Positions 3,441 to 47,218 of a stretch of DNA of 64,000 bases are shown piece after piece. The notes under the pieces are model-generated. The model saw only the letters and a program-made list of their open reading frames with translations. It was not told the DNA's origin and ran no database searches. Position 1 is the first letter of the stretch. Every line of letters begins with the position of its first letter. The stretch comes from Chthoniobacterales bacterium (GTDB taxonomy: Bacteria > Verrucomicrobiota > Verrucomicrobiia > Chthoniobacterales > JACTMZ01), in contig JBIKLF010000014.1 of the NCBI GenBank assembly GCA_044359955.1, positions 41-64,040 on the forward strand, read 5' to 3'. The translations under genes were made by a program, and so were the position numbers.

Positions 3441-5399
3441 CTAAAATTTCCGCGCCGTGCGAGTCTGCTGATACATCTCGTCGACCAGCTCGGAATATTT
3501 TTCGGTGATGACGTGACGCTTGGGTTTGAAGGTGGCGGTCAGTTCATCGCCGACTTCGAAGGGCTTGGGGACGAAGCGCCAGGCGGGAACGAATTCGAAA
3601 GGTTTGAACCCCTGCTCGCGGCTGACCAGACGCCGGACTTCGGCGTTGATGGCCTCGGCGATGCGCGGGTCGCGCCCGGCCGCCGTCAGGTCATCAACGG
3701 CGAAGCCCTGGGCCTTGAGTGCTTCGACGGACGGCACGATGAGGGCGCCGAGATTTTTTTCGTCTTGGCCGACGACCATGCATTGCTCGATGAAGCGCGA
3801 CTCCAGAAGTTTGGCTTCAATGGGGACGGGTTCGACGTTTTCCCCGCTGAGGAGGACGATGGTTTCCTTCGAGCGGCCGAGGATTTTCAGGCAGTCATTG
3901 AAGGTGACCATGCCGATATCCCCGGTGTTCATCCATCCATCCTTGAGCACCTTGGCGGTGGCCTCGGGGTTTTTGTAGTAGCCCTTCATGACCTGCGGGC
4001 CTTTGGCGTGGATCTCGCCCTTGCGGCCCCGGCCGCCTTGGCCGGAAACCCCCGAGGGATAGATCACCGTGCCGTCTGCCGGATCGACGATGCGGATCTC
4101 GGTGTGCGGCCAGAAGGGACCGACGGTGCCGATGACCAGCTGGCGCCAGGTGCGCACGGCGAGGACGGGCGAGGTCTCGGTCATGCCATAGCCCTCGAGC
4201 ACAGGGATGCCGATGAAATTGAAAAATTCATCGATGTGCGGCGGGAGGGCCCCTCCGCCGGAGACCGTGCCGCGGAACTCGCCCCCGACGACACCGCGCA
4301 ACTTTCGGAGCACGAGGACATCGAGAATTTTGTGGGGCAGCGCGTAAAGAAGAAGCTTCACGAGACTGGAGGCGGCTAGGCCGAGAGATTGCGACATGGA
4401 GCGGCCGTGCAGGTCGAGGAGGCGACCGGTGAGAAAAAACCACGCCGATTGGTATTCGCGCGAGCAATGATAGGCGGCGCGGAAGAGGGCGCGGCGCAAG
4501 GGCGGAGCTTGGGCGACATTCTGCAGGATGCGATGGTAGAGGCCTTCCCAAAGCCGGGGAGCGGAGGCCATCCAGGTCGGACGGGCTTTCCGCAAGTCCT
4601 CCCCGACCGCCCGCAGGCTGGTGTAGTAGGTGCAACTGCCGTGGCTGACCGTGACCATTTCGAAGACACGCTCGTAGCTGTGCCAAACGGGCAGGATGGA
4701 GAGGATGCGGTCACCCGGGGTCAGATCGAACGGGAGATAACGCGCCTGGGAGAGCATGTTGTCGTGCGTAAGCATGACGCCTTTGGGTTCCCCGGTGGTG
4801 CCGGAGGTGTAAATGATGGTGAAGAGGTCGTCACCCTTGATGCCGGCGAGTCGTTCCTCGATGACCCGGTCGCCGGTCGCGCGCAGGTGGCGTCCGCGCT
4901 CGAGCAGATCGGATAGTTTGTGCACTCCGCTGCCTTCGGGCGGCTCACCCTCGAGAAGGACGATATTTTTCACCTTCGGCAGAGCGGCGCGGACCGCGAG
5001 CACGCGCTGCAGCACACTCTTGTTCTCGGCGACGAGGAGTACCGCGTCACTGTGGGCCACGATAAAGGCCATCTCTTGTTCGGTGGTATCCGCCGCGCGT
5101 GGCACGTCGGCCCCGCCGCAGAGAAGAACCGCCGCATCGCAGAGCATCCACTCGGGGCGGTTATCCGAGACAATGGCCACCTGCTGACGGGCCTGCAGTC
5201 CGAGCCCGATCAAGGCTGTGCCCAGCGCGCATGCGGTGTCATAAAGCTCACGGTAGCTGCGAGTCTGAAAATCGGCATTCTTCCCCCGGTGGGCTTGAGC
5301 CGGGAAACTCCCGTAGACCTCGCCCGCCAAACGGTAGAGGTCGGCAATATTCGCCGCGCGGTCATAAATACGAAGGTCGCGGGCAGCCGGGGAACTCAT
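3441..5399 (-). CDS. Long-chain fatty-acid--CoA ligase (AMP-dependent synthetase/ligase family)
   Basis: ORF 3441..5477. AMP-binding motif IIYTSGTTGEPKGVMLTH, later GYGMTETS and TGDIG. Start placed at Met27 (MSSPAARD). Confidence 0.9.
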   Translation of the reverse strand: MSSPAARDLRIYDRAANIADLYRLAGEVYGSFPAQAHRGKNADFQTRSYRELYDTACALGTALIGLGLQARQQVAIVSDNRPEWMLCDAAVLLCGGADVPRAADTTEQEMAFIVAHSDAVLLVAENKSVLQRVLAVRAALPKVKNIVLLEGEPPEGSGVHKLSDLLERGRHLRATGDRVIEERLAGIKGDDLFTIIYTSGTTGEPKGVMLTHDNMLSQARYLPFDLTPGDRILSILPVWHSYERVFEMVTVSHGSCTYYTSLRAVGEDLRKARPTWMASAPRLWEGLYHRILQNVAQAPPLRRALFRAAYHCSREYQSAWFFLTGRLLDLHGRSMSQSLGLAASSLVKLLLYALPHKILDVLVLRKLRGVVGGEFRGTVSGGGALPPHIDEFFNFIGIPVLEGYGMTETSPVLAVRTWRQLVIGTVGPFWPHTEIRIVDPADGTVIYPSGVSGQGGRGRKGEIHAKGPQVMKGYYKNPEATAKVLKDGWMNTGDIGMVTFNDCLKILGRSKETIVLLSGENVEPVPIEAKLLESRFIEQCMVVGQDEKNLGALIVPSVEALKAQGFAVDDLTAAGRDPRIAEAINAEVRRLVSREQGFKPFEFVPAWRFVPKPFEVGDELTATFKPKRHVITEKYSELVDEMYQQTRTARKF

Positions 5400-32250: not shown

Positions 32251-32571
32251 TCAGGACAATCGAGGGGGTTGATCGATGGACGCGACCAGCGCAACGTGCG
32301 CAGCGAGACTTTCCGCACACAGCGAGGCAACCGACTCCGCCACGGTCAGCACGAAGACCGCTCCGGCCAGCGCGGGGGCATGATCATGCGAAGTGCAGCC
32401 GTGGTCGTGCTTCGGCCCGCCATCCTCATGGTCGGAGTGTCCGTGGGTATGGGCGACACACTCGGAGTGCGCCGCGATCTCCCAATGCTCATAAGCGTGA
32501 ATCCCTTGCGCCACGGCCAGCAACGCCAGGCCGACCAGCCACAGAATACGGAAACAACGCAACCCCGACAT
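32251..32571 (-). CDS. Small His/Cys-rich membrane protein upstream of the efflux operon
   Basis: 106 aa. One N-terminal helix, then HAYEHWEIAAHSECVAHTHGHSDHEDGGPKHDHGCTSHDHAP. I recognise no family. Confidence 0.6.
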   Translation of the reverse strand: MSGLRCFRILWLVGLALLAVAQGIHAYEHWEIAAHSECVAHTHGHSDHEDGGPKHDHGCTSHDHAPALAGAVFVLTVAESVASLCAESLAAHVALVASIDQPPRLS

Positions 32572-32700
32572 GACGCCGAAACTAAGCGGCCACTCTCCCG
32601 AGTCAAGGCCTCACCTTTTTTTTCGCCGTCACCACCCTCCGCTCTCCCGCCAAGGCCTCCCCCAGCCCGAGCACCTCGCGACGCTTAACGCCATCGCCAT

Positions 32701-32861
32701 CACCCAGATGCGCACCCTGCCGCATCGGAAGATTTCACTCTTCCTATTTCACTCTTCACTCCTCTTGCCGCCCGCCAATCTCCCTGACCGGGAAACTCTT
32801 GCGCTTATGACAACCTTCGTTCGTGCCTCCGGCACGGCGTTTGCTGTAAGTTCGCCGCGCC
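32701..32861 (+). repeat. hsdM-type leader repeat, copy A (93-bp conserved core 32769..32861, hairpin 32822..32836)
   Basis: Colinear with 34033..34195 and 35743..35901. It ends exactly at an ATG (32862). Confidence 0.85.
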
Positions 32862-32930
32862 ATGCCGAGACGCCCCACTGTCCAGAAAACACGAGTGACT
32901 CCTACGGCCTTCGCGAGCATCCTCAGCTGA
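32862..32930 (+). pseudogene. Diverged hsdM 5' remnant (22 codons)
   Basis: MPRRPTVQKTRVTPTAF aligns at nucleotide level with the hsdM-like start at 34196 (MPKRSTAKTKAADSTA). A stop follows after 22 codons. Confidence 0.4.
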
Positions 32931-32946
32931 TCGTCCCCAGCAACCC

Positions 32947-34014
32947 ATGAGCCAGAAGAAGTCCACCCCCGGCGGTCGCGCCAAGAAGAAGGCCGAAGTC
33001 TCGCTCGTCCGCTCGTCGGCAGCGGAATACCTCACCTTTGTGGCGGCCAGCGGACAGGGCGGCGTCGAAGCCGTTTACGCCGATGAAAACGTCTGGCTCA
33101 GCCAGAAAATGATGGGGGTGCTTTACGCGGTGGAAACCCACACGGTGAACTACCACCTCAAAAAGGTCTTCGCGGACAATGAGTTGCAGGAGGATTCAGT
33201 TATTCGAAATTTTCGAATAACTGCCGCCGACGGCAAAACCTACGACACCGGGCACTACAACCTCTCTGGCATCATCGCCGTCGGCTACAAGGTGAACTCG
33301 GAGCGCGCCGTGCAGTTCCGTAAGTGGGCCACTGGTATCATCGAGTCCTTCACCATCAAGGGCTATGCGATGGATGACGAGCGCCTGAAAAATGACGGCT
33401 CCATCCTTGGCAAAAAATACTTCGAGGAACAGCTCCAGCGCATCCGGGAAATCCGCCTGAGCGAGCGGAAGTTCTACCAGAAAATTACCGACATTTACTC
33501 GACCGCCATCGACTACGATGTGACTGCCGCCGCCACAAAACGGTTCTTCGCCACCGTGCAGAACAAGCTGCATTGGGCCATCCACGGCCAGACGGCGGCA
33601 GAGGTCATTCTTTCCCGCGCCGATGCCACCAAAGAACGCATGGGTCTCACCACCTGGAAGGACGCGCCCACGGGGAAAATCCAGAAGTTCGATGTTGTCG
33701 TCGCGAAAAACTACCTGACGGAAAACGAAATGGCGCAACTGCAACGCCTCGTCTCCGCCTACCTCGATGTGGCTGAAGACATGGCGCTGCGGCAGATTCC
33801 CATGACCATGCAGGACTGGGAAACCCGCCTCAATCGCTTCATCGCCGCGACCGACCGGGAAATTTTGCAAGATGCTGGCAAGGTCACGGCCGAGATCGCC
33901 CAGGCCCACGCCGAGAGCGAGTTTGAGAAATACCGTATCGTGCAGGACCGCCTCTTCGAGTCCGACTTCGACCGGATGATCAAGCAATTACCGAATGCAG
34001 GAAATCAGCCATGA
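32947..34014 (+). CDS. RhuM-family protein (Virulence_RhuM; frequent passenger of type I R-M loci)
   Basis: 355 aa. YADENVWLSQKMMGVLY, NLSGIIAVGYKVNSERAVQFRKWAT, GYAMDDERLKN, KFYQKITDIY, YLTENEM..L.RLVSAYLDVAE. Confidence 0.9.
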   Translation: MSQKKSTPGGRAKKKAEVSLVRSSAAEYLTFVAASGQGGVEAVYADENVWLSQKMMGVLYAVETHTVNYHLKKVFADNELQEDSVIRNFRITAADGKTYDTGHYNLSGIIAVGYKVNSERAVQFRKWATGIIESFTIKGYAMDDERLKNDGSILGKKYFEEQLQRIREIRLSERKFYQKITDIYSTAIDYDVTAAATKRFFATVQNKLHWAIHGQTAAEVILSRADATKERMGLTTWKDAPTGKIQKFDVVVAKNYLTENEMAQLQRLVSAYLDVAEDMALRQIPMTMQDWETRLNRFIAATDREILQDAGKVTAEIAQAHAESEFEKYRIVQDRLFESDFDRMIKQLPNAGNQP

Positions 34015-34032
34015 AACCTGAAACTCCAGCTC

Positions 34033-34195
34033 TTGAATACCCTTCTCCCCCCATCAAAAATTCATCATCCAACATTCAAAATTAAGCATTCCCCACGCTT
34101 TTCGGACGCCAAACTCCCTGCCCCGGAAACAGTTGCGCCTATGACAACCTTCGTTCGTGCCTCGGGCACGCCTTTTGCTGTATTTTCCCCGCGCG
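34033..34195 (+). repeat. hsdM-type leader repeat, copy B (core 34103..34195, hairpin 34156..34170)
   Basis: See copy A. It ends at ATG 34196, which opens an HsdM-like N-terminus. Confidence 0.85.
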
Positions 34196-34318
34196 ATGCC
34201 CAAACGCTCCACCGCCAAGACCAAAGCCGCCGACTCCACCGCCAATCTCGGCTTTGAGGCGAACAAGGTCTCCCTCGAACTCGTCACCTGGCTCGTCATC
34301 CAGAAGGACAATTTATGA
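34196..34318 (+). pseudogene. hsdM: hsdM 5' remnant (type I R-M methyltransferase N-terminus, 40 codons)
   Basis: MPKRSTAKTKAADSTANLGFEA reproduces the usual HsdM start (..LGFEA..LW.AAD), then diverges and stops. The stop overlaps the next ATG (ATGA). Confidence 0.6.
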
Positions 34319-34575
34319 GCAACGCAAAACGTAGCACCATCGAGGTCCAGGGAACCTCCATCGCTATTCTTTCTCATGAGCGCCAGGACTTCCTTTCGAA
34401 GATGAGCATCGCCTACAAGGAGGCCCGCGAAACCCACCACTGGCTCCGGTTGCTTCGTGATTCCGACATTCTGGACAACCGGCAAGCCGGTTCAGTGATC
34501 GAAGACTGCGCAGAACTTCTGAAGCTCTCCGGTTCCATCATCCGAACGACCAAATCGAACATTCCTAATTCGTAA
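34315..34575 (+). pseudogene. In-frame fusion of a KilA-N gene 5' fragment (26 codons) with the C-terminal half of a four-helix-bundle (23S rRNA IVS-type) gene
   Basis: MSNAKRSTIEVQGTSIAILSHERQDF is the N-terminus of R-M-associated KilA-N proteins. LSKMSIAYKEARETHHWLRLLRDS... is the second half of the four-helix-bundle family. Confidence 0.6.
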
Positions 34576-34581
34576 TTCAAA

Positions 34582-35718
34582 ATGAAGCCGACGCCAACAG
34601 CGCCTGACTACACCAACTTCCTCACCGAGGTGAAGGGCCGGATCCAGACCGCGCGCCTGCAGGCCAGCCGGGCTGTGAACCGGGAGTTGGTGATGCTGTA
34701 TTGGGACATCGGACGCGGGATTGTGGAACGCCAACAGCGCCTTGGCTGGGGTGATGCGGTGGTGGAGCGTTTCGCCGCTGACCTGCGAGTGGAGTTTCCG
34801 GACATGCAGGGCTTCTCTCCGGCAAATGTGTGGCGAATGCGGCAATGCTTCGAGGCGTATTCCGGTCCTGAATTTCTCGCACAGGCTGTGCGAGAATTGG
34901 GTCCGGTTCCCGTTGGGATGGCGCGGGATCAGTTTCTCGCACAAGCTGTGCGAGAATTGGTGGCTGCGGTTCCGTGGGGACATCACGTTTTCCTGCTGGG
35001 CAAAATCAAGGAACCACAGGGCATGTTCTACTACCTCCGCGCCACGGCGCAATTCGGCTGGAGCCGGCGCGTGTTGTTGAACCAGATCAAAGATCAGGCG
35101 TATGAGCGGGCGGTGAAGGAGAAGAAGACGCACAATTTCGAACTGGCGCTGCCGGAGCATTTCGCCGGGCAGGCGGACGAGATGCTCAAGAGCCGCTACA
35201 ACCTCGAGTTTCTCGGAATCGCCCGACCGATGAAGGAGCTGGAACTGGAGGAGCGGCTGATTTCCCGGCTCCAACAGTTCATCATGGAGCTGGGATACGG
35301 CTTCTGTTTCGTGGGCCGGCAATACCGGCTGGCACTGGGGAAGAAGGAATACTTCGTGGACCTGTTGTTTTACCATCGTTTCCTCAAGGCGCTGGTGGCG
35401 TTTGATCTCAAGATCGGCGAGTTTGAGCCGGAGCACGCGGGCAAGATGGATTTCTATTTGAACCTGCTGAACGAGAAGGAACGCGGACCGGATGACCGGC
35501 CATCGATCGGCGTCATCCTGTGCGCGGAGAAGGATGACGTGGAGGTTGAATACGCTCTGAAGACCAAGGCGAACCCGATCGGCGTGGCGGAGTATGTCCT
35601 TTCAGAGAAGTTGCCATCCGAATTCAAGGGCAAGCTGCCAACCGCCAGGCAACTCGCAGATGTGGCGAGAGAATTCCTGCCTGCGCCGAGAAAGACTGCC
35701 AAGAAGAAGAAATCATGA
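34582..35718 (+). CDS. DUF1016 / YhcG-family PD-(D/E)XK nuclease-like protein
   Basis: 378 aa. LVMLYWDIGRGI, VPWGHHVFLL, YNLEFLG, GYGFCFVGRQYRL....YFVDLLFYHRFLKALVAFDLKIGEF.PEHAGKMDFYLN. It contains a 20-codon internal tandem duplication. Confidence 0.9.
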   Translation: MKPTPTAPDYTNFLTEVKGRIQTARLQASRAVNRELVMLYWDIGRGIVERQQRLGWGDAVVERFAADLRVEFPDMQGFSPANVWRMRQCFEAYSGPEFLAQAVRELGPVPVGMARDQFLAQAVRELVAAVPWGHHVFLLGKIKEPQGMFYYLRATAQFGWSRRVLLNQIKDQAYERAVKEKKTHNFELALPEHFAGQADEMLKSRYNLEFLGIARPMKELELEERLISRLQQFIMELGYGFCFVGRQYRLALGKKEYFVDLLFYHRFLKALVAFDLKIGEFEPEHAGKMDFYLNLLNEKERGPDDRPSIGVILCAEKDDVEVEYALKTKANPIGVAEYVLSEKLPSEFKGKLPTARQLADVAREFLPAPRKTAKKKKS

Positions 35719-35742
35719 GTAAGCCCGGAGAGCACAGAACTT

Positions 35743-35901
35743 CACCCGAATGCGCACCCTGCTCGCCGCCAACCAAGGAAAACGCCTGAAATAGCGCCCC
35801 CCACCTTTCGCCCGCCAAACTCCCTGCCCCGGAAACACTTGCGCCTATGACAACCTTCGTTCGTGCCAGCGGCACGCCTCTTGCTGTAATTTCCCCGCGC
35901 G
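35743..35901 (+). repeat. hsdM-type leader repeat, copy C (core 35809..35901, hairpin 35862..35876)
   Basis: See copy A. It ends at the ATG of the GIY-YIG gene (35902). Confidence 0.85.
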
Positions 35902-36753
35902 ATGAACAAACCGTATTCGATCAAGATTTTTCTCCCCGCGGGAGATCCTGAAGGAATCCGCACCATCGAGAAATCAAACTGGACCGGCGCGGGAATTGTC
36001 ATCCCCCGTGCTTTGATGAGCGAAGCCAAGAACCGTCGCGAACTCGCGCGCACTGGCGTGTATGTGCTGATTGGACCGCCCGAGGAATCCGGTTTATCGC
36101 GGGTCTATGTCGGCGAAGGCGACCCGATCAAACCCCGGCTGGAACAGCACGCCGCGAAGAAAGATTTTTGGACCAGCTGCATCGCCTTCACGAGCAAAGA
36201 CGAGAACCTGAACAAGGCTCACGTGCAGTATATCGAATCACGCTTGATCACCTTGGCCGCGCAAGCCAAGCGGTGTGTTTTAGACAATGGAAATGCGCCC
36301 GCTTTGCCGTCGCTCTCGGATGCCGATGGAGCGGACGCGGAAGGGTTCCTTTCGGAAATCATGCTCTGCTTTCCGGTGCTGGGTCTCACCGTGTTCACCG
36401 CCGCCGCTCCGATTCAGAAGAGTGCCAAGCTCCTGTTCATCTCGGCCAAAGGCATCAAAGCTGAAGGCATGGAGACGCATGATGGCTTCGTCGTCCGCAC
36501 GGGCAGCGGCGCGGTCAAAAGTGAAGTCCCGTCGTGTCACGCCTACTTGAAGGAGCTTCGCGCCGCCTTGATTTCCAACGGGGTTCTGAAGCCGACGTCA
36601 GACGGCTATGCTTTCGCCCAAGACTACGTTTTCCCATCACCATCCACTGCCGCGGGAGTCGTGCAGGGACGCGCCGCCAATGGCCGCGTGGACTGGAAGA
36701 CGAAAGACGGCAAAACGCTCAAAGACCTGCAGGAGGCCAAAGCAAAAGAATGA
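35902..36753 (+). CDS. GIY-YIG nuclease-family protein with C-terminal DUF4357 domain
   Basis: 283 aa. [32 protein letters not shown]...[27 protein letters not shown], and a C-terminal [21 protein letters not shown] block. Confidence 0.88.
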
Positions 36754-37190
36754 GCGACCACCACATTTCCCTCACCGACATGCGCAAAGCCAAGGACAGC
36801 CACTTTTCTAATTACGACTGGCTGTGCAAGCGCAACACCGTCGAATTCCTCGGCTTATGGGAGACTGTCTACAACCCAGATTTTAATTCCGGCGAATTCG
36901 CCATAATTGGAAGTCAGGAGGGGCTGAACAACTACAAACTCAGCGTCAAGCAATGGGTTAAAAAGACCAACGACATCCGCCGCGCCCTCGTTGAGGCCGA
37001 CCTCGTGGACACTGCTTTGCGCGATAGCGCATTTCATCAAAGTAAATCCACTCCGCAGGTCCTGAGCGAAGCGAAGAGCAACATGGTCGCCCTCCCGGGT
37101 CAGCTCTTCTACAGCACGCAGATCCCCGTCTGCCTCTGGTTTATTGGGAAAAATGGAAACGCTGGCGGTTCAACTTTCGGCCTCAACTAA
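36750..37190 (+). pseudogene. Chimeric remnant ORF: KilA-N middle part + HsdM C-terminal scraps
   Basis: Residues 6-76 ([10 protein letters not shown]...[18 protein letters not shown]...[10 protein letters not shown]) continue the KilA-N fragment at 34315. Residues 77-87 ([11 protein letters not shown]) and 112-131 ([20 protein letters not shown]) are HsdM motifs. ATGA overlap with the GIY-YIG gene. The stop lies 2 nt before the SIR2 gene. Confidence 0.65.
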
Positions 37191-37192
37191 TT

Positions 37193-38221
37193 ATGCCGTC
37201 CTCAACCGACTCATTCAGTTCCCGCCTCGAAGCGAAAGTTGCCCAACAACTCAATTCGCAACGCGTCGGCTATTTGTTGGGAGCGGGGGCATCGTATCTC
37301 GGTGGGTGCGGATACCCGCTTGCGGGGAAACTCTGGGACTGCATTGCGCCGAAACTGCCGAAGACCGAGCGCGACGAGATTCAAGCAAAGCTCGACGGTG
37401 GCGCTGATGGCATCGAAAACGCGCTTGATTTGCTCGACGATGGTTCGGCCATTGAAAAGCCGCATCGGCATCGCGTCACAGAGGCAATCGCCACCCATTT
37501 CCATTCGATTTCGCCGCCGATTGACGTTCACCAAACTTTTGTTCGCAGGCTCGCCGCAAGGGACGAGCTGAGCACGCCGGTTTTCTGCCTGAACTACGAT
37601 GGCCTGATTGAATTGGCCGCAGATGCAGAGCGGATACGCGTAGTGGATGGTTTCATCGGTCAGGAACGGCTGTTCTTCGACCCTGTGACTTATCAGGAGC
37701 GCACAGCCCTCTCCCACCGCGGACCACGAAAGCCCCAGGCTGATTGGCGGAAAGGAATCCTCCACCTCTACAAGCTGCACGGGTCACTTGGTTGGTTCCA
37801 TTTAGGTGGCACTGATGTGCGCCGTTTCGGCTTGGGTGCGAAAACTCCACCGAACGCGAAGCGCCTTATGGTGCCGCCTCAGCACCGCAAGACCATTGAC
37901 ACCACAGCGCATCCCTATTCGGCCCTCTGGTCAGACTTTCGTGGCCTCCTCTGCCAAGGACCAACCATGCTAAATCGCCTCGCCTGTGTCGGCTACGGGC
38001 TACGCGACGAACACCTGAATGCGGTGATTGAGAACGCGCTTGGAAGAAATGACTTCACCATGCTCGCCTTTGCCCACGCCCTCACCGACCAAGCGTTCAC
38101 TCGATGGAGCGCCAAGCGCAATGTTATCATCGTCACCGAAGATCGGTGCTCCCTCTACGGCGAAGTCGGCCCAGGGCATACCGCACTGTGGAATTTCGCG
38201 ACACTCACTCAAACCATCTGA
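37193..38221 (+). CDS. SIR2-like (SIR2_2) NADase-type defence protein
   Basis: 342 aa. GYLLGAGASY, FCLNYDGLIE, LYKLHGSLGWF. Directly upstream of a HerA-type ATPase. Confidence 0.88.
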   Translation: MPSSTDSFSSRLEAKVAQQLNSQRVGYLLGAGASYLGGCGYPLAGKLWDCIAPKLPKTERDEIQAKLDGGADGIENALDLLDDGSAIEKPHRHRVTEAIATHFHSISPPIDVHQTFVRRLAARDELSTPVFCLNYDGLIELAADAERIRVVDGFIGQERLFFDPVTYQERTALSHRGPRKPQADWRKGILHLYKLHGSLGWFHLGGTDVRRFGLGAKTPPNAKRLMVPPQHRKTIDTTAHPYSALWSDFRGLLCQGPTMLNRLACVGYGLRDEHLNAVIENALGRNDFTMLAFAHALTDQAFTRWSAKRNVIIVTEDRCSLYGEVGPGHTALWNFATLTQTI

Positions 38222-38227
38222 ACATCC

Positions 38228-39919
38228 ATGAGCACATCAACCGGAACACTGATCGGCCACGTCATCGACGTTCGAGGCGATGGATTGACCGCCAATCTTT
38301 TGGCCGACGAGCAAGACGCGGCTCCGAAGATCACCGTCGGCGACGAGGATGTCTTGGTCGGACAACTCGGCTCGTATGTATCGGTTCGGCAAGGCTCAGT
38401 TCGGATTCTTTGCGTCGTCACGCGGGTTTCAGAACTAGAGAAGTTGGCCGATACAAACAACGCATCACCCGACGCGCCAGTCGTCACCTACGCACAGCGG
38501 GCCATCGCACTAATTCCAATCGGCAGCGTGTCAGTCGAAGGCGAGTTTGAACGTGGCGTCAGCAGCTATCCCACAACCGGGGCTGAGGTGCATGTTGTGG
38601 CGGGCAACGAACTGGGCACGATGTTCAGTAAATTTAGAGCGCAGGGCTATGTGGTTGGAAACCTGTCTTCACAGCCTTCCGTTAAGGTCTGCCTTGAGCC
38701 GTCACGTCTTTTCGGGCGCCACTTCGCAATCCTCGGCCAAACTGGAGCAGGCAAATCTTGGGCCGTTGCAAGTCTCATCCAGCAGGCGCTCGCCGTCATG
38801 CCAAAGGCTCACATCATCATCTTGGATCTGCACGGCGAGTATTGCTGGCTTAAACCGGATGGGGAACGAGACGCCGCCTTCAAGGAAGAACATTTTCGAT
38901 ACGTCGATGCCAAAGAATTGGAGATGCCATATTGGCTCATGACTTATTCCGAGCTTTGCGACCTGTTGATCGATCACTCGGAACGGGAGGCCGCAAATCA
39001 AACAGCGTTCTTCAGAGACACTCTCTTTGATTTGAAGCAAGCTGAGAAGAACTCGCTCGGCTTAGACCGAGTCACGATTGATACGCCGGTGTATTTTTCT
39101 TTGGAAGAACTACTTCGACAAACAACCGACAAGAATACTGAGCGCTCACGCAACCCAGAAACTAATCGAATGAATAATGGGCCTTTGTATGGGACTTTTG
39201 ACCGATTTCTAATACGCCTTCAAAGCAAGCTCAATGACGTTCGATACGACTTCCTGTTGAAGCCCCAAAAAAGGACGACATCCGCTTCGCTTGCGGAACT
39301 TCTCCGAGATTTCGTTGGTTTGGGTGACCCCAAGCGGCCCGTGACCGTAATTGACCTCAGCACGGTTCCATTTGATGTTAGGCCAACAGTTGCGGCCCAG
39401 ATTGGGCGGCTCGCATTCGAGTTCAATTTTTGGAACCCGCAATACCGGGAGCTTCCGCTGCTGCTTGTCTGTGAGGAGGCCCACGCCTACGTCAAGCGGC
39501 AACATGACTCCCAATTTGCCGGTGCCCGGAAGTCCATGGAAAGAATCGCCAAAGAAGGGCGCAAATACGGCGTTGGTTTGGCGGTGGTGAGCCAACGACC
39601 CCACGAGCTCTCTGAGACGGTTCTTGCGCAATGCGGCACGTTCCTATGTCTCCGCATTACCAACCCCGACGACCAGTCATACGTGAAAAGCCTCGTGCCG
39701 GAGGGTGAGCGCGGCTTGGTGGACATTCTCGCTGGCTTGGGAAGAGGCGAGTGCTTGGCGCTTGGGGAGGCAGTTCCGCTGCCGACGCGCTTCAAGTTCA
39801 ACAAGCCCGCACCATTCCCGAACAGCGAGGACATAGACTTTTACAACAAATGGAAAGACGGCCCAGATGACATCGATGTCGAGAGCATCGTTGACCGTTG
39901 GAGAAAGCAACAGAGATAG
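38228..39919 (+). CDS. HerA/DUF87-type hexameric ATPase (partner of SIR2)
   Basis: 563 aa. N-terminal HAS-barrel-like IGHVIDVRGD...VGQLGSYVSV, Walker A AILGQTGAGKSWA, Walker B-like LLLVCEEAHAYV, VSQRP. Confidence 0.9.
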   Translation: MSTSTGTLIGHVIDVRGDGLTANLLADEQDAAPKITVGDEDVLVGQLGSYVSVRQGSVRILCVVTRVSELEKLADTNNASPDAPVVTYAQRAIALIPIGSVSVEGEFERGVSSYPTTGAEVHVVAGNELGTMFSKFRAQGYVVGNLSSQPSVKVCLEPSRLFGRHFAILGQTGAGKSWAVASLIQQALAVMPKAHIIILDLHGEYCWLKPDGERDAAFKEEHFRYVDAKELEMPYWLMTYSELCDLLIDHSEREAANQTAFFRDTLFDLKQAEKNSLGLDRVTIDTPVYFSLEELLRQTTDKNTERSRNPETNRMNNGPLYGTFDRFLIRLQSKLNDVRYDFLLKPQKRTTSASLAELLRDFVGLGDPKRPVTVIDLSTVPFDVRPTVAAQIGRLAFEFNFWNPQYRELPLLLVCEEAHAYVKRQHDSQFAGARKSMERIAKEGRKYGVGLAVVSQRPHELSETVLAQCGTFLCLRITNPDDQSYVKSLVPEGERGLVDILAGLGRGECLALGEAVPLPTRFKFNKPAPFPNSEDIDFYNKWKDGPDDIDVESIVDRWRKQQR

Positions 39920-39934
39920 ACTGTTTGTGATGAA

Positions 39935-40945
39935 ATGAAACATAAGCCACTTAATCAAAGCCTTAGCGCCGCTAAGGCGACCAAGCAGGATGAGTTTTAC
40001 ACTCAGCTTTCGGATATCGAAAAGGAACTCCGTCATTACACGAAGCACTTCAATGGCAAGACCGTCTTGTGCAACTGCGATGACCCACGCGTCAGCAACT
40101 TCTTCCACTACTTCTCCCACAATTTTGAGAAGCTAAAGCTAAAGAAACTCATCACCACCTGCTACAAGAACCAAGACGTCGACCTCTTCAGCACCCACAA
40201 GGCAGAACGCGGGGTCTATCTCGAATACAACGGCGACAAAGACGGCAACCGTGTCCCAGACCCGGCAGAGATCGGCGTCCATCCCTTTAAGGGTGATGGC
40301 GATTTCCGCAGCGAGGAATGTATCGCGCTACTCAAGCAAGCCGACATCGTGGTCACCAATCCTCCGTTCTCGCTGTTTAGGGAATATGTCCAGCAGCTCC
40401 TTAAGTATGGCAAAAAGTTTCTTATCATCGGCAACCAAGGCGCGATTAGTTACAGAGAGATTTTTGAAGCTATTAAACGAAACGAGATGTGGCTCGGATA
40501 TACTCATCCCGTCGCGTTTGTTGTTCCAGACCATTATGAGATGCGCGAGGTTAGAAGCTGGCGCGACGAAAGTGGCACGAACTGGCGGAGTTTAGGAAAT
40601 GCCTGTTGGTTCACTAACCTGGATATCCAAAAGCGACACGAAGAGCTGGTTGCTATTAAGCCATATGATCCACTCTCACACCCGCACTATGACAACTACA
40701 ACGCCGTCGAAGTTTCCAGATACAAGGATATACCAACCAATTACGACGGCGTGATGGGCGTGCCTGTAACTTTTCTTGAGTATTACAATCCAGAGCAGTT
40801 CGAGATTGTCGGGTCGGATTACGAAGTGCGGCAGGGCCAGTTGCCTGAAATTCTAAAGGGAGGATGGAACGGAAAGATTGACCGCGGATACGTCAAAGGG
40901 AAGCGGCTGTTCGCGCGAATACTCATACGCCGAAAGACCAAATAG
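39935..40945 (+). CDS. EcoRI_methylase-family N6-adenine DNA methyltransferase
   Basis: 336 aa. AKATKQDEFYT, GKTVLCNCDDP, catalytic IVVTNPPFSLF. Confidence 0.85.
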   Translation: MKHKPLNQSLSAAKATKQDEFYTQLSDIEKELRHYTKHFNGKTVLCNCDDPRVSNFFHYFSHNFEKLKLKKLITTCYKNQDVDLFSTHKAERGVYLEYNGDKDGNRVPDPAEIGVHPFKGDGDFRSEECIALLKQADIVVTNPPFSLFREYVQQLLKYGKKFLIIGNQGAISYREIFEAIKRNEMWLGYTHPVAFVVPDHYEMREVRSWRDESGTNWRSLGNACWFTNLDIQKRHEELVAIKPYDPLSHPHYDNYNAVEVSRYKDIPTNYDGVMGVPVTFLEYYNPEQFEIVGSDYEVRQGQLPEILKGGWNGKIDRGYVKGKRLFARILIRRKTK

Positions 40946-42031
40946 ATGAAAATCGACCTAAACGAAATCAAAGTCAGGGAACTCTTTGAAGACTTCGAAG
41001 ACAATGCCGAGGCCGGTGTCGTCGGATTTGGCGGGAAGCTCGACATTCGTCCGCCCTACCAGCGCGAGTTTATTTACAAAGACAAGCAGCGCGACGCGGT
41101 GATTGACACGGTGCGGAAGAACTACCCGCTGAATGTGATGTATTGGGCGGTGCGGGAGGATGGAAAGTTGGAGGTGATTGACGGTCAGCAGCGCACGCTT
41201 TCGATCTGCCAATATGTGAACGGCGACTTTTCCATCGGCGGGCTGGCCTTTCACAACCTGCAGGACGACCAGCAACAGCAAATCCTCGACTACAAGCTGA
41301 TGGTCTATTTCTGCTCCGGCACGGATAGCGAGAAGCTGGAGTGGTTTAAGACGATCAACATCGCGGGAGAGGAATTGACCGCGCAGGAACTCCGTAATGC
41401 CGTCTATGCCGGGCCGTGGACGGCAGATGCGAAGCGATATTTCAGCAAGACAGGCTGCGCGGCCTATGGTCTGGGCAGCGACTACCTCAAGGGCAGCCCG
41501 ATCCGGCAGGAATATCTGGAGACGGCCATCGAGTGGCACGCAGCAGGCGAAACAATCGAGGACTACATGTCGAAGCACCAGCACGACGAGAATGCCGGTG
41601 AAATATGGCATTACTTCCAAAGCGTCATCGCGTGGGTGAAGGCGACGTTCCCAAAATATCGCAAGGAGATGAAGGGAGGTGACTGGGGCGGCCTCTACAA
41701 CAAGTTCAAAGGTGCAAAGGTGAACCCGGACACGCTGGAAAAGCAGGTCGCCAAGCTGATGATGGACGATGACGTGACGAAGAAATCGGGCATTTACCCG
41801 TATGTGCTGGACGGGAAGGAAAGCCACCTCAGCATCCGCGCCTTCACAGACAACAACAAACGTGAAGCGTATGAGCGGCAAAAAGGGAAATGTCCGGTCT
41901 GCAAAATGCACTTTGAGATCGAAGGCATGGAAGCCGACCACATCACGCCATGGCACGCGGGTGGGAAAACCATCGCAGCGAATTGCCAGATGCTCTGCAA
42001 AGACGACAATCGAAAGAAGTCGGGGATATAG
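40946..42031 (+). CDS. DUF262 (GmrSD N-terminal, ParB-like) domain fused to a C-terminal HNH endonuclease
   Basis: 361 aa. IRPPYQREFIY, VIDGQQRTLSI, C-terminal CPVCKMHF...ADHITPWHAGGKTIAANCQMLCKDDNRKKS. It starts on the nucleotide after the MTase stop. Confidence 0.88.
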   Translation: MKIDLNEIKVRELFEDFEDNAEAGVVGFGGKLDIRPPYQREFIYKDKQRDAVIDTVRKNYPLNVMYWAVREDGKLEVIDGQQRTLSICQYVNGDFSIGGLAFHNLQDDQQQQILDYKLMVYFCSGTDSEKLEWFKTINIAGEELTAQELRNAVYAGPWTADAKRYFSKTGCAAYGLGSDYLKGSPIRQEYLETAIEWHAAGETIEDYMSKHQHDENAGEIWHYFQSVIAWVKATFPKYRKEMKGGDWGGLYNKFKGAKVNPDTLEKQVAKLMMDDDVTKKSGIYPYVLDGKESHLSIRAFTDNNKREAYERQKGKCPVCKMHFEIEGMEADHITPWHAGGKTIAANCQMLCKDDNRKKSGI

Positions 42032-43614: not shown

Positions 43615-44030
43615 ATGTCCGACCAACTCCGCAGCGGAAAGAGGGCGGCTGGCTGAGCTTACTTGCGACATTCTCACAGACTCGGGGCGCCTGACCGGGC
43701 CAATCCATTCGCCGCATGTGGTCAAGGCGGTGGCTGATTTGGTTCGAGAGATGAATTCCTACTCCTCGAATCTGATCGAGGGGCTCAAAACCACCCCGCG
43801 CGAGATCGGGCGGGCCTTGCACAACGTCAAAACCCAGAGCGGCTGAACTTACCGGATCATTCCGGGCATGTTGCGGGGATTTCATGGTGGACGCCGGACG
43901 TGACACGCCCCCGGATTTTTCCGCTCTACCGGACTTTCTCGAGCACTAGCTTCAATTTTACGGCAGCCCAGACATCCCGCCGACCGAGCGACTCAACGCC
44001 ACCACCGCCGCCTCACGCTGGATTCAAGGA
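43615..44030 (+). pseudogene. Fic/DOC-family gene remnant (frameshifted, truncated before the HPFxxGNG core)
   Basis: MSDQLRSGK in one frame. Then RGRLAELT...VREMNSYSSNLIEGLKTTPREIGRAL (a Fic N-terminal-type block) in the frame of track ORF 43343..43846. Further scraps sit in a third frame. No Fic motif is found. Confidence 0.4.
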
Positions 44031-44257
44031 TGCTCGTTCGAAAAAGCCACCTGCTCGCGCACGATGACATTGGCCATGACCGCCCGTTCGAGGATCAAGA
44101 TCATGTAACGATGGCGTGACATCCCGGATGCTTCCGCTAACTCGTCGAGGCGCTTGATCGTCTGGGGGGTCAACTGCACGGCAATTGCCCGTGTTTTTCT
44201 CACCGTATTCACAATAACAAGGATAAATTGGCCCAGAGCGGCTGGTCGCGCAAGCAT
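44024..44257 (-). CDS. Ribbon-helix-helix (CopG/Arc-like) protein, orphan
   Basis: 77-aa ORF. AIAVQLTPQTIKRLDELAEASGMSRHRYMILILERAV is a typical RHH strand-helix-helix. The true start is probably internal. Confidence 0.55.
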   Translation of the reverse strand: MLARPAALGQFILVIVNTVRKTRAIAVQLTPQTIKRLDELAEASGMSRHRYMILILERAVMANVIVREQVAFSNEHP

Positions 44258-45889: not shown

Positions 45890-47218
45890 ATGGAAACACT
45901 CGCCGTATCATCCGAGCCCCCCACCGCAGCGCCTTTTCCGCCCCCCACACACCGCGCCATCCTCGATTCCCTGCTCGACCCGCACCTCCTCCTTATCCCC
46001 CTCCGTAACGCTTCCGGCCGGATCACCGACTTCACCATCATGGAGGCGAACACCGCCGCCGCCGAATACTACCATCTCGACCGCGAAACCATGCCCGGTC
46101 GTCACCTTCTGGAATTCCTTCCCACGGACAACATCGGCGCCCTTCTGGCCATGGCCCGCGATGCGTATGAGTCCGGCGAACCGCTCATCGTCAACAACTA
46201 CCCTCTCGCCCTCCATATCTACGGTCAGGAAAACCGCTTCGATATCCGTGCCGTGCGCATCGATGACGAAATCGTCTGGACCTGGCGCGATGTCACCGAA
46301 CGCTACCTCGCCGCCAAACGTCTGGCCGCTTCGGAAGAACGCTACCGCCTGCTCGCCGAAAATTCCTCCGACGTCGTGACCCGCGTCCGCCGCGGCACCA
46401 TCCGATGGATCTCGCCCTCCATCACCCCGACCTTCGGCTGGGCCGTGGACGAATGCACCGGACACCTCGTCTCAAGCTTCATCGGGGAAGAACACCAGAC
46501 GCAATGCGCCGGATACATGGCCGAGCTGGAAGCCGGCCACACCGTGCGCGGACGAACCATCGTGCGCGCCAAGGACGGAACCCGGCACTGGATCGAGACG
46601 CACGCCAGTCCCTACCTCGATGCCAACGGACATCACGACGGCTTCGTCGCCACCAGTCGTATCGTCGACGCGCAGGTGGCCGCCGAGCAAGAACTCGAAC
46701 ACCGGGCCCGCACCGACGACCTCACCCAGCTCCTCAACCGCAAAGAAGTCCTCAGCCGTATCGAAACCCTCGGCGCGCAATCCCGCCGCACCGGACAGCA
46801 ACTTGCCGTCCTCTTCTGCGACCTCGACCGCTTCAAAAACATCAACGACACCCACGGCCATGCCGTCGGCGACGAAGTCCTCCGCACCATGGCCCGCCGG
46901 CTCCGGGAAACCCTCCGCACCAGCGACGACCTCGCCGCCCGGGTCGGCGGTGACGAACTCCTTGTTGTCCTCCACGGCGTGCAAGACACGGAGAACGCCG
47001 CGGCCGTCGCCGAAAAATTGCGCACCGCCGCGATGGAACCGATCTCCACCACCGACGGCCCGGTCGTCGTCACCCTCAGCATCGGAGTCACCCTCGCACA
47101 ACCGGATGAATCGACCGATACCCTCGTCGCACGCGCCGATGCCGCCATGTATCAAGCCAAACACAACGGACGCAACCGCGTGATTTCCTTCAACGGACAA
47201 GAACCCTCACTCCCTTAA
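45890..47218 (+). CDS. PAS-PAS-GGDEF diguanylate cyclase (active-site variant GGDEL)
   Basis: 442 aa. Two PAS-like blocks, then DDLTQLLNRKEV, FCDLDRFKNINDTHGHAVGDEVL, RVGGDELLVVL, MYQAKHNGRNR. Confidence 0.92.
   Translation: METLAVSSEPPTAAPFPPPTHRAILDSLLDPHLLLIPLRNASGRITDFTIMEANTAAAEYYHLDRETMPGRHLLEFLPTDNIGALLAMARDAYESGEPLIVNNYPLALHIYGQENRFDIRAVRIDDEIVWTWRDVTERYLAAKRLAASEERYRLLAENSSDVVTRVRRGTIRWISPSITPTFGWAVDECTGHLVSSFIGEEHQTQCAGYMAELEAGHTVRGRTIVRAKDGTRHWIETHASPYLDANGHHDGFVATSRIVDAQVAAEQELEHRARTDDLTQLLNRKEVLSRIETLGAQSRRTGQQLAVLFCDLDRFKNINDTHGHAVGDEVLRTMARRLRETLRTSDDLAARVGGDELLVVLHGVQDTENAAAVAEKLRTAAMEPISTTDGPVVVTLSIGVTLAQPDESTDTLVARADAAMYQAKHNGRNRVISFNGQEPSLP

Follow-up and report, generated by a model that had tools for sequence, protein, structure and literature searches.

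A DUF262–HNH nuclease coupled to an EcoRI-family adenine methyltransferase: a restriction–modification module whose sequence specificity may reside in the methyltransferase

Introduction

Why should a nuclease built on DUF262, a domain best known from the attack on modified DNA, be encoded immediately behind a DNA methyltransferase? The question is raised by a 64,000-nt stretch of a Chthoniobacterales genome (assembly GCA_044359955.1, contig JBIKLF010000014.1, positions 41 to 64,040), referred to below as the window, in which the gene of an N6-adenine DNA methyltransferase (MTase) abuts that of a protein combining DUF262 with an HNH nuclease domain. In the GmrSD phylogenomics paper, in reviews and in the Menshen paper, nucleases with DUF262 appear as type IV enzymes or in association with BREX or Ssp, and a 2025 EcoSal review mentions DUF262 for GmrSD and SspE only. 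A first, sequence-only reading of the window offered two interpretations of the pair: either the MTase protects self DNA from an enzyme that cuts unmodified DNA, which would be a new restriction–modification (R-M) architecture, or the two proteins deal with different modifications. The comparative analysis described here indicates with high confidence that MTase and nuclease constitute a bona fide R-M module, and gives somewhat better than even support to the view that this module is MTase-guided in the manner of Type III (Mod/Res) systems.

The two genes and their products

The MTase gene (39935–40945, + strand) encodes a 336-residue protein of the EcoRI family (gamma-class), an assignment made in the sequence-only reading and borne out by a full-length match to the Pfam family EcoRI_methylase (PF13651, E=3e-130, residues 10–334, 434.9 bits where the gathering cut-off is 26.4). 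It likewise matches the PADLOC model MTase_II (PDLC03297, 1.2e-124) over its full length and is ~48% identical to M.EcoRI of E. coli plasmids. The catalytic motif IV, NPPF (residues 142–145, 40358–40369, +), was located in the translation and falls into the most conserved ten-residue bin of the protein (residues 141–150, conservation 0.98 among 140 MTase homologues). Nearer the N-terminus lie DEFYT (residues 19–23) and the family-conserved block CNCDDP (residues 46–51, 40070–40087, +), which is present in M.EcoRI too, sits in a region of conservation 0.83 and, judged by its position, has a putative role in binding S-adenosylmethionine.

The MTase stop codon (TAG, 40943–40945) is followed directly by the nuclease start codon (ATG at 40946), giving a 0-nt gap (...AAA TAG, ATG AAA..., 40943–40948, +). 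The nuclease (40946–42031, +, 361 residues) consists, according to Pfam, PADLOC and AlphaFold2/Foldseek, of a DUF262 domain (ParB/Srx-fold, NTPase-like; NTP, nucleoside triphosphate), a helical middle region and a zinc-finger HNH domain. Pfam recognises GmrSD_N/DUF262 (PF03235, 7e-20) and HNH (PF01844, 1.6e-10), with a further HNH family, PF14279, also at E<=0.01 and no match to DUF1524 at this threshold; the PADLOC model REase_II (PDLC03418, 7.7e-149) covers residues 1–359. The nucleotide-pocket motifs of DUF262, RPPYQREFIY (residues 35–44, 41048–41077) and DGQQRT (residues 79–84, 41180–41197), lie within 41048–41197 (+). The HNH active site with its zinc ligands (CPVC, D331-H332, N346, C347, C351, N355) occupies 41891–42022 (+), and its characteristic stretches are CPVC (residues 316–319), ADHITPWHAGG (330–340) and NCQMLCKDDNRKKS (346–359).

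The coordinates, the junction and all of the motifs quoted in the sequence-only reading were found as described, as was the combination of DUF262 with a canonical HNH domain and no DUF1524. The contrast drawn there with GmrSD, which carries DUF1524 at the corresponding position, needs to be narrowed: the two nuclease domains belong to different families but not to different folds, DUF1524 being itself a His-Me/HNH-like finger.

The nuclease is always accompanied by the methyltransferase

A scan seeded with the nuclease over contigs from one genome per species returned at least 587 confirmed matches, of which the best 80 loci were analysed. These encode nucleases 67–88% identical to that of the window and span Verrucomicrobiota, Acidobacteriota, Bacteroidota, Bacillota, Actinomycetota and Campylobacterota as well as the candidate phyla radiation (CPR) and a metagenome-assembled genome (MAG) of Pacearchaeota. 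An EcoRI-family MTase adjoins the nuclease in all 80, and in 79 of them it lies directly upstream on the same strand. On viral contigs (nuclease identity 54–78%) the MTase was found beside the nuclease at 77 of 79 loci, the remaining two ending at a contig edge, so that the association holds in 77 of 77 evaluable cases. All 157 genome and viral nuclease loci with a readable flank thus carry an EcoRI-family MTase. More distant pairs, at 36–41% identity, are also linked on viral contigs and E. faecium plasmids, and the pair is linked as well in Flavobacterium phage laban6-1. A survey of co-occurrence had been suggested in the sequence-only reading, and the linkage that it brought to light is complete among the evaluable nuclease loci.

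The tightness of the junction is equally widespread. Among 140 non-redundant MTase–nuclease pairs, the spacing is -4 nt in 53, -1 nt in 7, 0 nt in 15 and 1–4 nt in 31, together 106 of the 140. The emphasis originally placed on the abutting genes was therefore well placed, and their arrangement is not a matter of chance; judged from these spacings, the 0-nt junction of the window is one form of a family-wide translational coupling with the MTase first.

The converse association is looser. Of 35 viral loci collected with the MTase as seed, 34 could be evaluated, and eight of these encode orphan MTases among phage-like neighbours, with no nuclease despite 2–3 kb of flank. In Mycobacteriophage Hami1 (L206, 1425–2653), a MTase 54% identical to that of the window is followed by a 50-residue open reading frame (ORF) corresponding to nuclease residues 1–46 (61–63% identity). 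An EcoRI-family MTase with such a 50-residue stub ORF behind it is also present in Marchy and Norz, which like Hami1 are temperate mycobacteriophages. The stub reflects either a recent deletion of the nuclease or an N-terminal peptide kept for a role of its own. This asymmetry, with a nuclease that is never alone and a MTase that sometimes is, is classically seen where a restriction enzyme is toxic and its methylase gives protection.

These observations bear on the proposal that the nuclease is a GmrSD-like, modification-dependent enzyme of type IV, placed beside a methylase that has no functional tie to it or deals with another modification. Every biochemically studied DUF262 and His-Me nuclease of the GmrSD/BrxU kind does cut modified DNA. 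Such an enzyme would, however, not account for an obligate association with a single MTase family in which gene order and overlap are conserved, nor for a MTase that persists without the nuclease and never the reverse; further, the C-terminal domain is a PF01844 HNH in place of DUF1524, and the chain has 361 residues as against 580 in BrxU. We regard this explanation as very improbable, and the second interpretation of the sequence-only reading, in which the two proteins serve different modifications, finds no support in linkage that is obligate at 157 of 157 evaluable loci and in an overlap that is conserved. The same 157 nucleases are not stand-alone enzymes without a cognate methylase, and in SspE a DUF262 nuclease was already known to be tied to a host modification system. 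Its first interpretation fares better: linkage strongly supports a MTase that protects from the DUF262–HNH enzyme, but to speak of a new R-M architecture was an overstatement, given the PADLOC models and an earlier report of a homologous pair (PMC9025767).

A few loci stand out for other reasons. On the Enterococcus dispar plasmid pK205-4b-C (L003, 61–4699), the oxazolidinone/phenicol resistance gene optrA lies between the MTase (61–1017) and the nuclease (3593–4699), and the alignment of this MTase with that of the window ends at window residue 295. Nuclease copies 72% identical to that of the window are present in the MAG of Candidatus Pacearchaeota, a DPANN archaeon (L048), and in Candidatus Campbellbacteria of the CPR (L028); given correct binning of the MAGs, they point to very wide horizontal spread.

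Variable cassettes are confined to the methyltransferase

Where, then, does the sequence specificity of the module lie? In the 140 non-redundant pairs, the ten-residue bins of the nuclease have conservation values of 0.51–0.91 with no hypervariable segment, and the MTase contains two hypervariable, indel-rich segments. The first, VR1 (residues 188–224, 40496–40606, +), has a conservation of 0.35–0.49. The second, VR2 (residues 288–330, 40796–40924, +), lies between the conserved anchors QFEI.G and Y/F-x-RI, has a conservation of 0.18–0.34 with many indels, and ranges from 28 to 74 residues in the 12 largest of 39 clusters (50% identity). Both are putative target-recognition cassettes. In gamma-class methylases the target-recognition domain is usually C-terminal, as is the location of the variable regions here. 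Among 70 genome-derived pairs, the nuclease is the more conserved partner in 93% of pairwise comparisons (mean identity 70.7% vs 61.6%).

When the variable regions were clustered into types at 60% identity, the 140 systems yielded 29 VR1 types, 55 VR2 types and 96 combinations of the two. Several VR2 types are found with each of nine VR1 types, and several VR1 types with each of 21 VR2 types. Nucleases that are 89–91% identical can be found beside MTases with different cassettes: both variable regions are unrelated between loci L045 and L091 and between L014 and L088, and VR2 alone differs between L053 and L133 and between L014 and L016. The 32–39 differences between such near-identical nucleases are scattered and largely conservative. 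Conversely, one VR2 type was found with nucleases that are merely 53–58% identical. The identity of the MTase core predicts that of the nuclease (R2 0.470), and adding the cassette match improves the prediction hardly at all (R2 0.473). As far as these alignments can tell, the cassettes are reassorted independently of the nuclease, which suggests that DNA sequence specificity is carried by the MTase and not by the nuclease. A constant nuclease facing mosaic recognition cassettes in the MTase is what Type I and Type III systems show, and by this analogy the MTase would also supply target recognition for restriction. The data thus point further than the simple Type II-like pair that the sequence-only reading had in mind, since segments resembling specificity determinants are found in the MTase only.

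The orthodox Type II explanation has to be weighed at this point. Here the DUF262–HNH protein would read the site of the MTase independently and without contact to it, using its DUF262 and middle domains for DNA recognition of its own. Both proteins match PADLOC's Type II models over their full length, they are encoded by two separate genes as in classical Type II systems, and the helical region of ~200 residues in the nuclease could be a recognition module; stand-alone HNH restriction enzymes of Type II are represented by KpnI and Hpy99I. Yet with 96 cassette combinations in 140 systems and nuclease bins of 0.51–0.91, no segment of the nuclease tracks the MTase cassettes, and nucleases 89–91% identical sit beside MTases with unlike ones. 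Further, a Type II enzyme that needs no cofactor would not be expected to keep its NTP-pocket motifs invariant, as this nuclease does. We therefore consider an orthodox Type II system unlikely, at roughly one chance in four.

The cassettes also connect the family to a textbook enzyme. M.EcoRI, encoded beside R.EcoRI on an E. coli plasmid, shares VR1 (80% identity) and/or VR2 (89–93%) with the nuclease-linked MTases of L041, L058 and L068, to which its overall identity is 61–69% only; its VR1 is also 80% identical to that of the nuclease-linked MTase of L087. This suggests that the EcoRI system took its methylase from the larger DUF262–HNH-linked family, or the reverse. The cassette combination of the window is common to six other loci (L008, L010, L011, L018, L020 and L023) and differs from that of M.EcoRI, so the site of the window system is probably not GAATTC. 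An attempt to find the recognition site from site counts was dropped because a 64-kb window is uninformative for this purpose.

Structure and conserved residues of the nuclease

The fold of the nuclease was examined on an AlphaFold2 model built from an 88-sequence alignment, with a predicted local distance difference test score (pLDDT) of 87.9; an earlier model from 38 sequences was discarded for its poor N-terminal half (pLDDT 65.5). In Foldseek searches the N-terminus resembles ParB/Noc CTPases and BrxU, the matches to BrxU and ParB being weak; for the C-terminus the similar structures are the Gme HNH nuclease, McrA, Cap5 and the HNH domains of Cas9. No match reached E<=1e-3, and no solved structure is similar to the nuclease as a whole. 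The model places the helical region of ~200 residues between the two. At the sequence level, a search of the PDB with the nuclease gave weak HNH matches only (best E=0.032), and phmmer aligned the HNH stretch to the Gme HNH nuclease 4h9d.

Q39, R40, D79, G80 and R83 do not vary even in homologues at 37–59% identity, and C316, C319, D331, H332, N346, C347 and N355 are invariant among the 88 sequences. Together with NPPF in the MTase, the QR/DGQQR residues and the zinc-HNH of the nuclease mean that the catalytic motifs of both proteins are intact and strictly conserved, as read from these alignments. In GmrSD, BrxU and SspE, DGQQR serves to bind NTP (PMC4619093, PMC10952713).

The kinship with SspE invites a further explanation, in which DUF262 senses m6A (N6-methyladenine) irrespective of sequence, NTP hydrolysis switches HNH onto unmarked DNA, and the MTase does nothing more than write the mark. 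The DUF262 nuclease SspE reads the phosphorothioate mark of its host and couples this to NTPase activity and nicking, DUF262 is described in the literature as a sensor of modified DNA, and a generic reader would also account for the missing co-variation with the MTase cassettes. If any m6A sufficed, however, solitary nucleases would be expected beside other adenine methylases, and none was seen among 157 evaluable loci; the MTase core and the nuclease moreover co-diverge and are translationally coupled. A sequence-blind reader of m6A is therefore improbable, with perhaps a tenth of the weight.

Proposed mode of action

The preferred reading is a MTase-guided module. By what is known of the two families, the MTase would write m6A at its target sites and thereby protect host DNA, and the HNH domain would cut unmodified incoming DNA. 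By analogy with BrxU and SspE, the ParB/Srx-like DUF262 pocket could bind or hydrolyse NTP and so gate cleavage. The two swappable cassettes of the MTase would hold the sequence specificity; the nuclease, which has no matching variable part, would most likely be a generic subunit for cleavage, with a MTase bound at an unmethylated site to target or license it.

Methylome data bearing on the family come from Sulfitobacter indolifex, whose plasmid pDSM14862_g encodes a homologous pair flagged in 2022 as a possible novel R-M system (PMC9025767). Its nuclease is 64% identical to that of the window, the genes overlap by 4 nt and the MTase cassettes differ. PacBio sequencing found GAATTC unmethylated in this organism, in keeping with cassettes that determine specificity and are unlike those of M.EcoRI, and the m6A motif unique to the strain was the asymmetric GGCATC, which had no REBASE match (PMC9025767). 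If its assignment to this MTase is confirmed, an asymmetric site would fit a Type III-like tolerance of hemimethylation. A bolder form of the proposal, which we hold to be possible but give rather less than an even chance, is a distinct NTP-dependent class of R-M systems: a monomeric EcoRI-type MTase with two reassorting cassettes would be the only reader of sequence and would recruit or license the 361-residue ParB-fold NTPase/HNH protein. The nuclease might then be a nucleotide-gated clamp that communicates between sites and allows hemimethylation to protect asymmetric sites, so that dozens of specificities could be served by one small nuclease.

Several points weigh against a MTase-guided module. 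One concern is that PADLOC labels the nuclease as a Type II restriction endonuclease. Another is that the nuclease varies at ~30% of its positions, so that a shift of specificity through a few residues is possible. The putative role of VR1 and VR2 in target recognition is deduced from their position, their variability and two data points (M.EcoRI and S. indolifex); a PDB sequence search with the MTase gave no match, and no structure of the M.EcoRI family was found from which their roles could be read. The authors of the S. indolifex study did not prove the assignment of GGCATC to its MTase (PMC9025767). The sampled loci are the best-scoring relatives and no random sample. The literature search found no biochemical characterisation of, or other experiment on, any family member, so that methylation, cleavage, NTP use and MTase–nuclease contact are all predictions. 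Finally, a metagenomic representative of 688 residues (P0267) is a natural single-chain fusion of an EcoRI-like MTase domain with a DUF262–HNH nuclease, which speaks for the guided reading; its MTase motifs are degenerate, with CNAGDGEQ for CNCDDP and FPSF for NPPF, so this evidence is weak, and the protein may contain a MTase-derived DNA-recognition domain or be a decaying gene.

Genomic context

In the window the pair closes a low-GC island at ~32.6–42.1 kb (GC 0.555 vs ~0.64 in the flanks). In + reading order, the island encodes a RhuM protein (32947–34014), a DUF1016/YhcG PD-(D/E)XK nuclease (34582–35718), a PDC-S14/DUF4357 protein (35902–36753) and the C-terminal remnant of a Type I HsdM (N6_Mtase, about 36750–37190), and this part (32570–37190) has the appearance of a Type I R-M locus in decay, in which defence genes are embedded. 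It is followed by an anti-phage pair of SIR2 (342 residues) and HerA (563 residues) at 37193–39919 (+; PADLOC, HerA 4e-153, SIR2 4e-32), the HerA stop codon lying 15 nt upstream of the MTase start. Neither a tRNA nor an integrase gene was found within the window, and a scan for promoters and terminators gave sites no more numerous than in shuffled controls.

SIR2–HerA and the downstream DUF418 gene were considered as parts of the module and rejected, as neither travels with the pair: in 196 other loci, tblastn found no match to SIR2 or DUF418 and one weak, distant match to HerA. The MTase and nuclease genes thus make up a two-gene module in their own right that happens to sit in a defence island. 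The region shortly beyond the island contains a small ribbon-helix-helix/NikA-like ORF (44024–44257, -) with weak Pfam matches and a PAS-GGDEF diguanylate cyclase (45890–47218, +), with no apparent link of either to the pair.

Earlier records and significance

At the level of annotation the pair is already known, through the PADLOC models for Type II MTase and restriction enzyme and through the S. indolifex report (PMC9025767). A literature search that included DUF262 papers of 2025–2026 found no named, characterised prototype. In the methylome survey by Blow et al. (2016), EcoRI-like MTases of Algoriphagus marincola HL-49, listed with no restriction partner, and of B. longum ATCC 15697 were predicted to recognise GAATTC and recorded as "Not Detected"; its supplements yielded no motif that can be unambiguously assigned to either enzyme, and the Nanomotif supplements contain no PF13651 entries. 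What the comparative data reveal is a modular and apparently MTase-held specificity that would set the system apart from orthodox Type II.

If the MTase is the sole specificity subunit, the pair would be a compact two-protein R-M system that works like Type I or Type III but with other machinery, a ParB/Srx-fold NTPase combined with an HNH finger. The range of DUF262 nucleases would then extend from modification-dependent (type IV) restriction to the classical cutting of what is unmodified, and M.EcoRI, a textbook enzyme, would be joined to a far larger family, in which most of the members sampled here are paired with another nuclease. Modules of this kind are common, with at least 587 matches among one-genome-per-species representatives and occurrences in bacteria, CPR, the MAG of a DPANN archaeon, plasmids and phages, and its nuclease is often annotated just as a "DUF262 domain-containing protein". 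A repertoire of 29 x 55 cassettes on a constant nuclease could serve the engineering of new specificities. Further, methylome pipelines that give GAATTC to these methylases by homology are likely to be wrong in many cases.

Comparison with known systems

The closest parallel in organisation is offered by Type III systems (Mod/Res, for example EcoP15I). In both, the gene order is methylase before nuclease with an overlap of the two, variable cassettes for recognition (putative ones here) are confined to the methylase and its nuclease partner is conserved, the nuclease is not found without the methylase (here at 157 evaluable loci), and the cleavage subunit has an NTPase-like domain; one candidate motif of the present family, GGCATC, is asymmetric as well. 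The components themselves are different. The MTase here is of the EcoRI type (gamma-class, PF13651) and Mod is beta-class, the NTPase-like domain has a ParB/Srx fold where Res has an SF2 helicase, the nuclease is a zinc-finger HNH where Res has PD-(D/E)XK, and the cleavage protein has just 361 residues. Targeting that depends on the methylase is, for the pair described here, a prediction from sequence.

With GmrSD and BrxU the nuclease shares its overall layout, in which an N-terminal DUF262 with QR and DGQQR leads into helices and then, at the C-terminus, a nuclease domain of the His-Me-finger kind. It differs in that this last domain is a PF01844 HNH whose zinc ligands are CxxC/CxxxC, and not DUF1524, in reaching ~60% of the length of BrxU (361 vs 580), and in being obligately linked to a MTase and predicted to attack unmodified DNA. 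SspABCD–SspE provides the precedent of a DUF262 and His-Me nuclease that carries out restriction on behalf of a DNA-modification system of the host; there the mark is a backbone phosphorothioate made by four proteins, whereas here it would be m6A from one methylase, the nuclease domain is of another family, and the module has two genes.

R.EcoRI is a PD-(D/E)XK enzyme. The EcoRI system shares the methylase family (~48% identity), and some nuclease-linked members have VR1 and VR2 of the M.EcoRI type; its restriction enzyme is an unrelated protein whose gene lies, on the E. coli plasmid, upstream of that of the methylase, and the MTase cassettes of the window differ from those of M.EcoRI. The pair on pDSM14862_g of S. 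indolifex, by comparison, is the same two-gene module fitted with different MTase cassettes.

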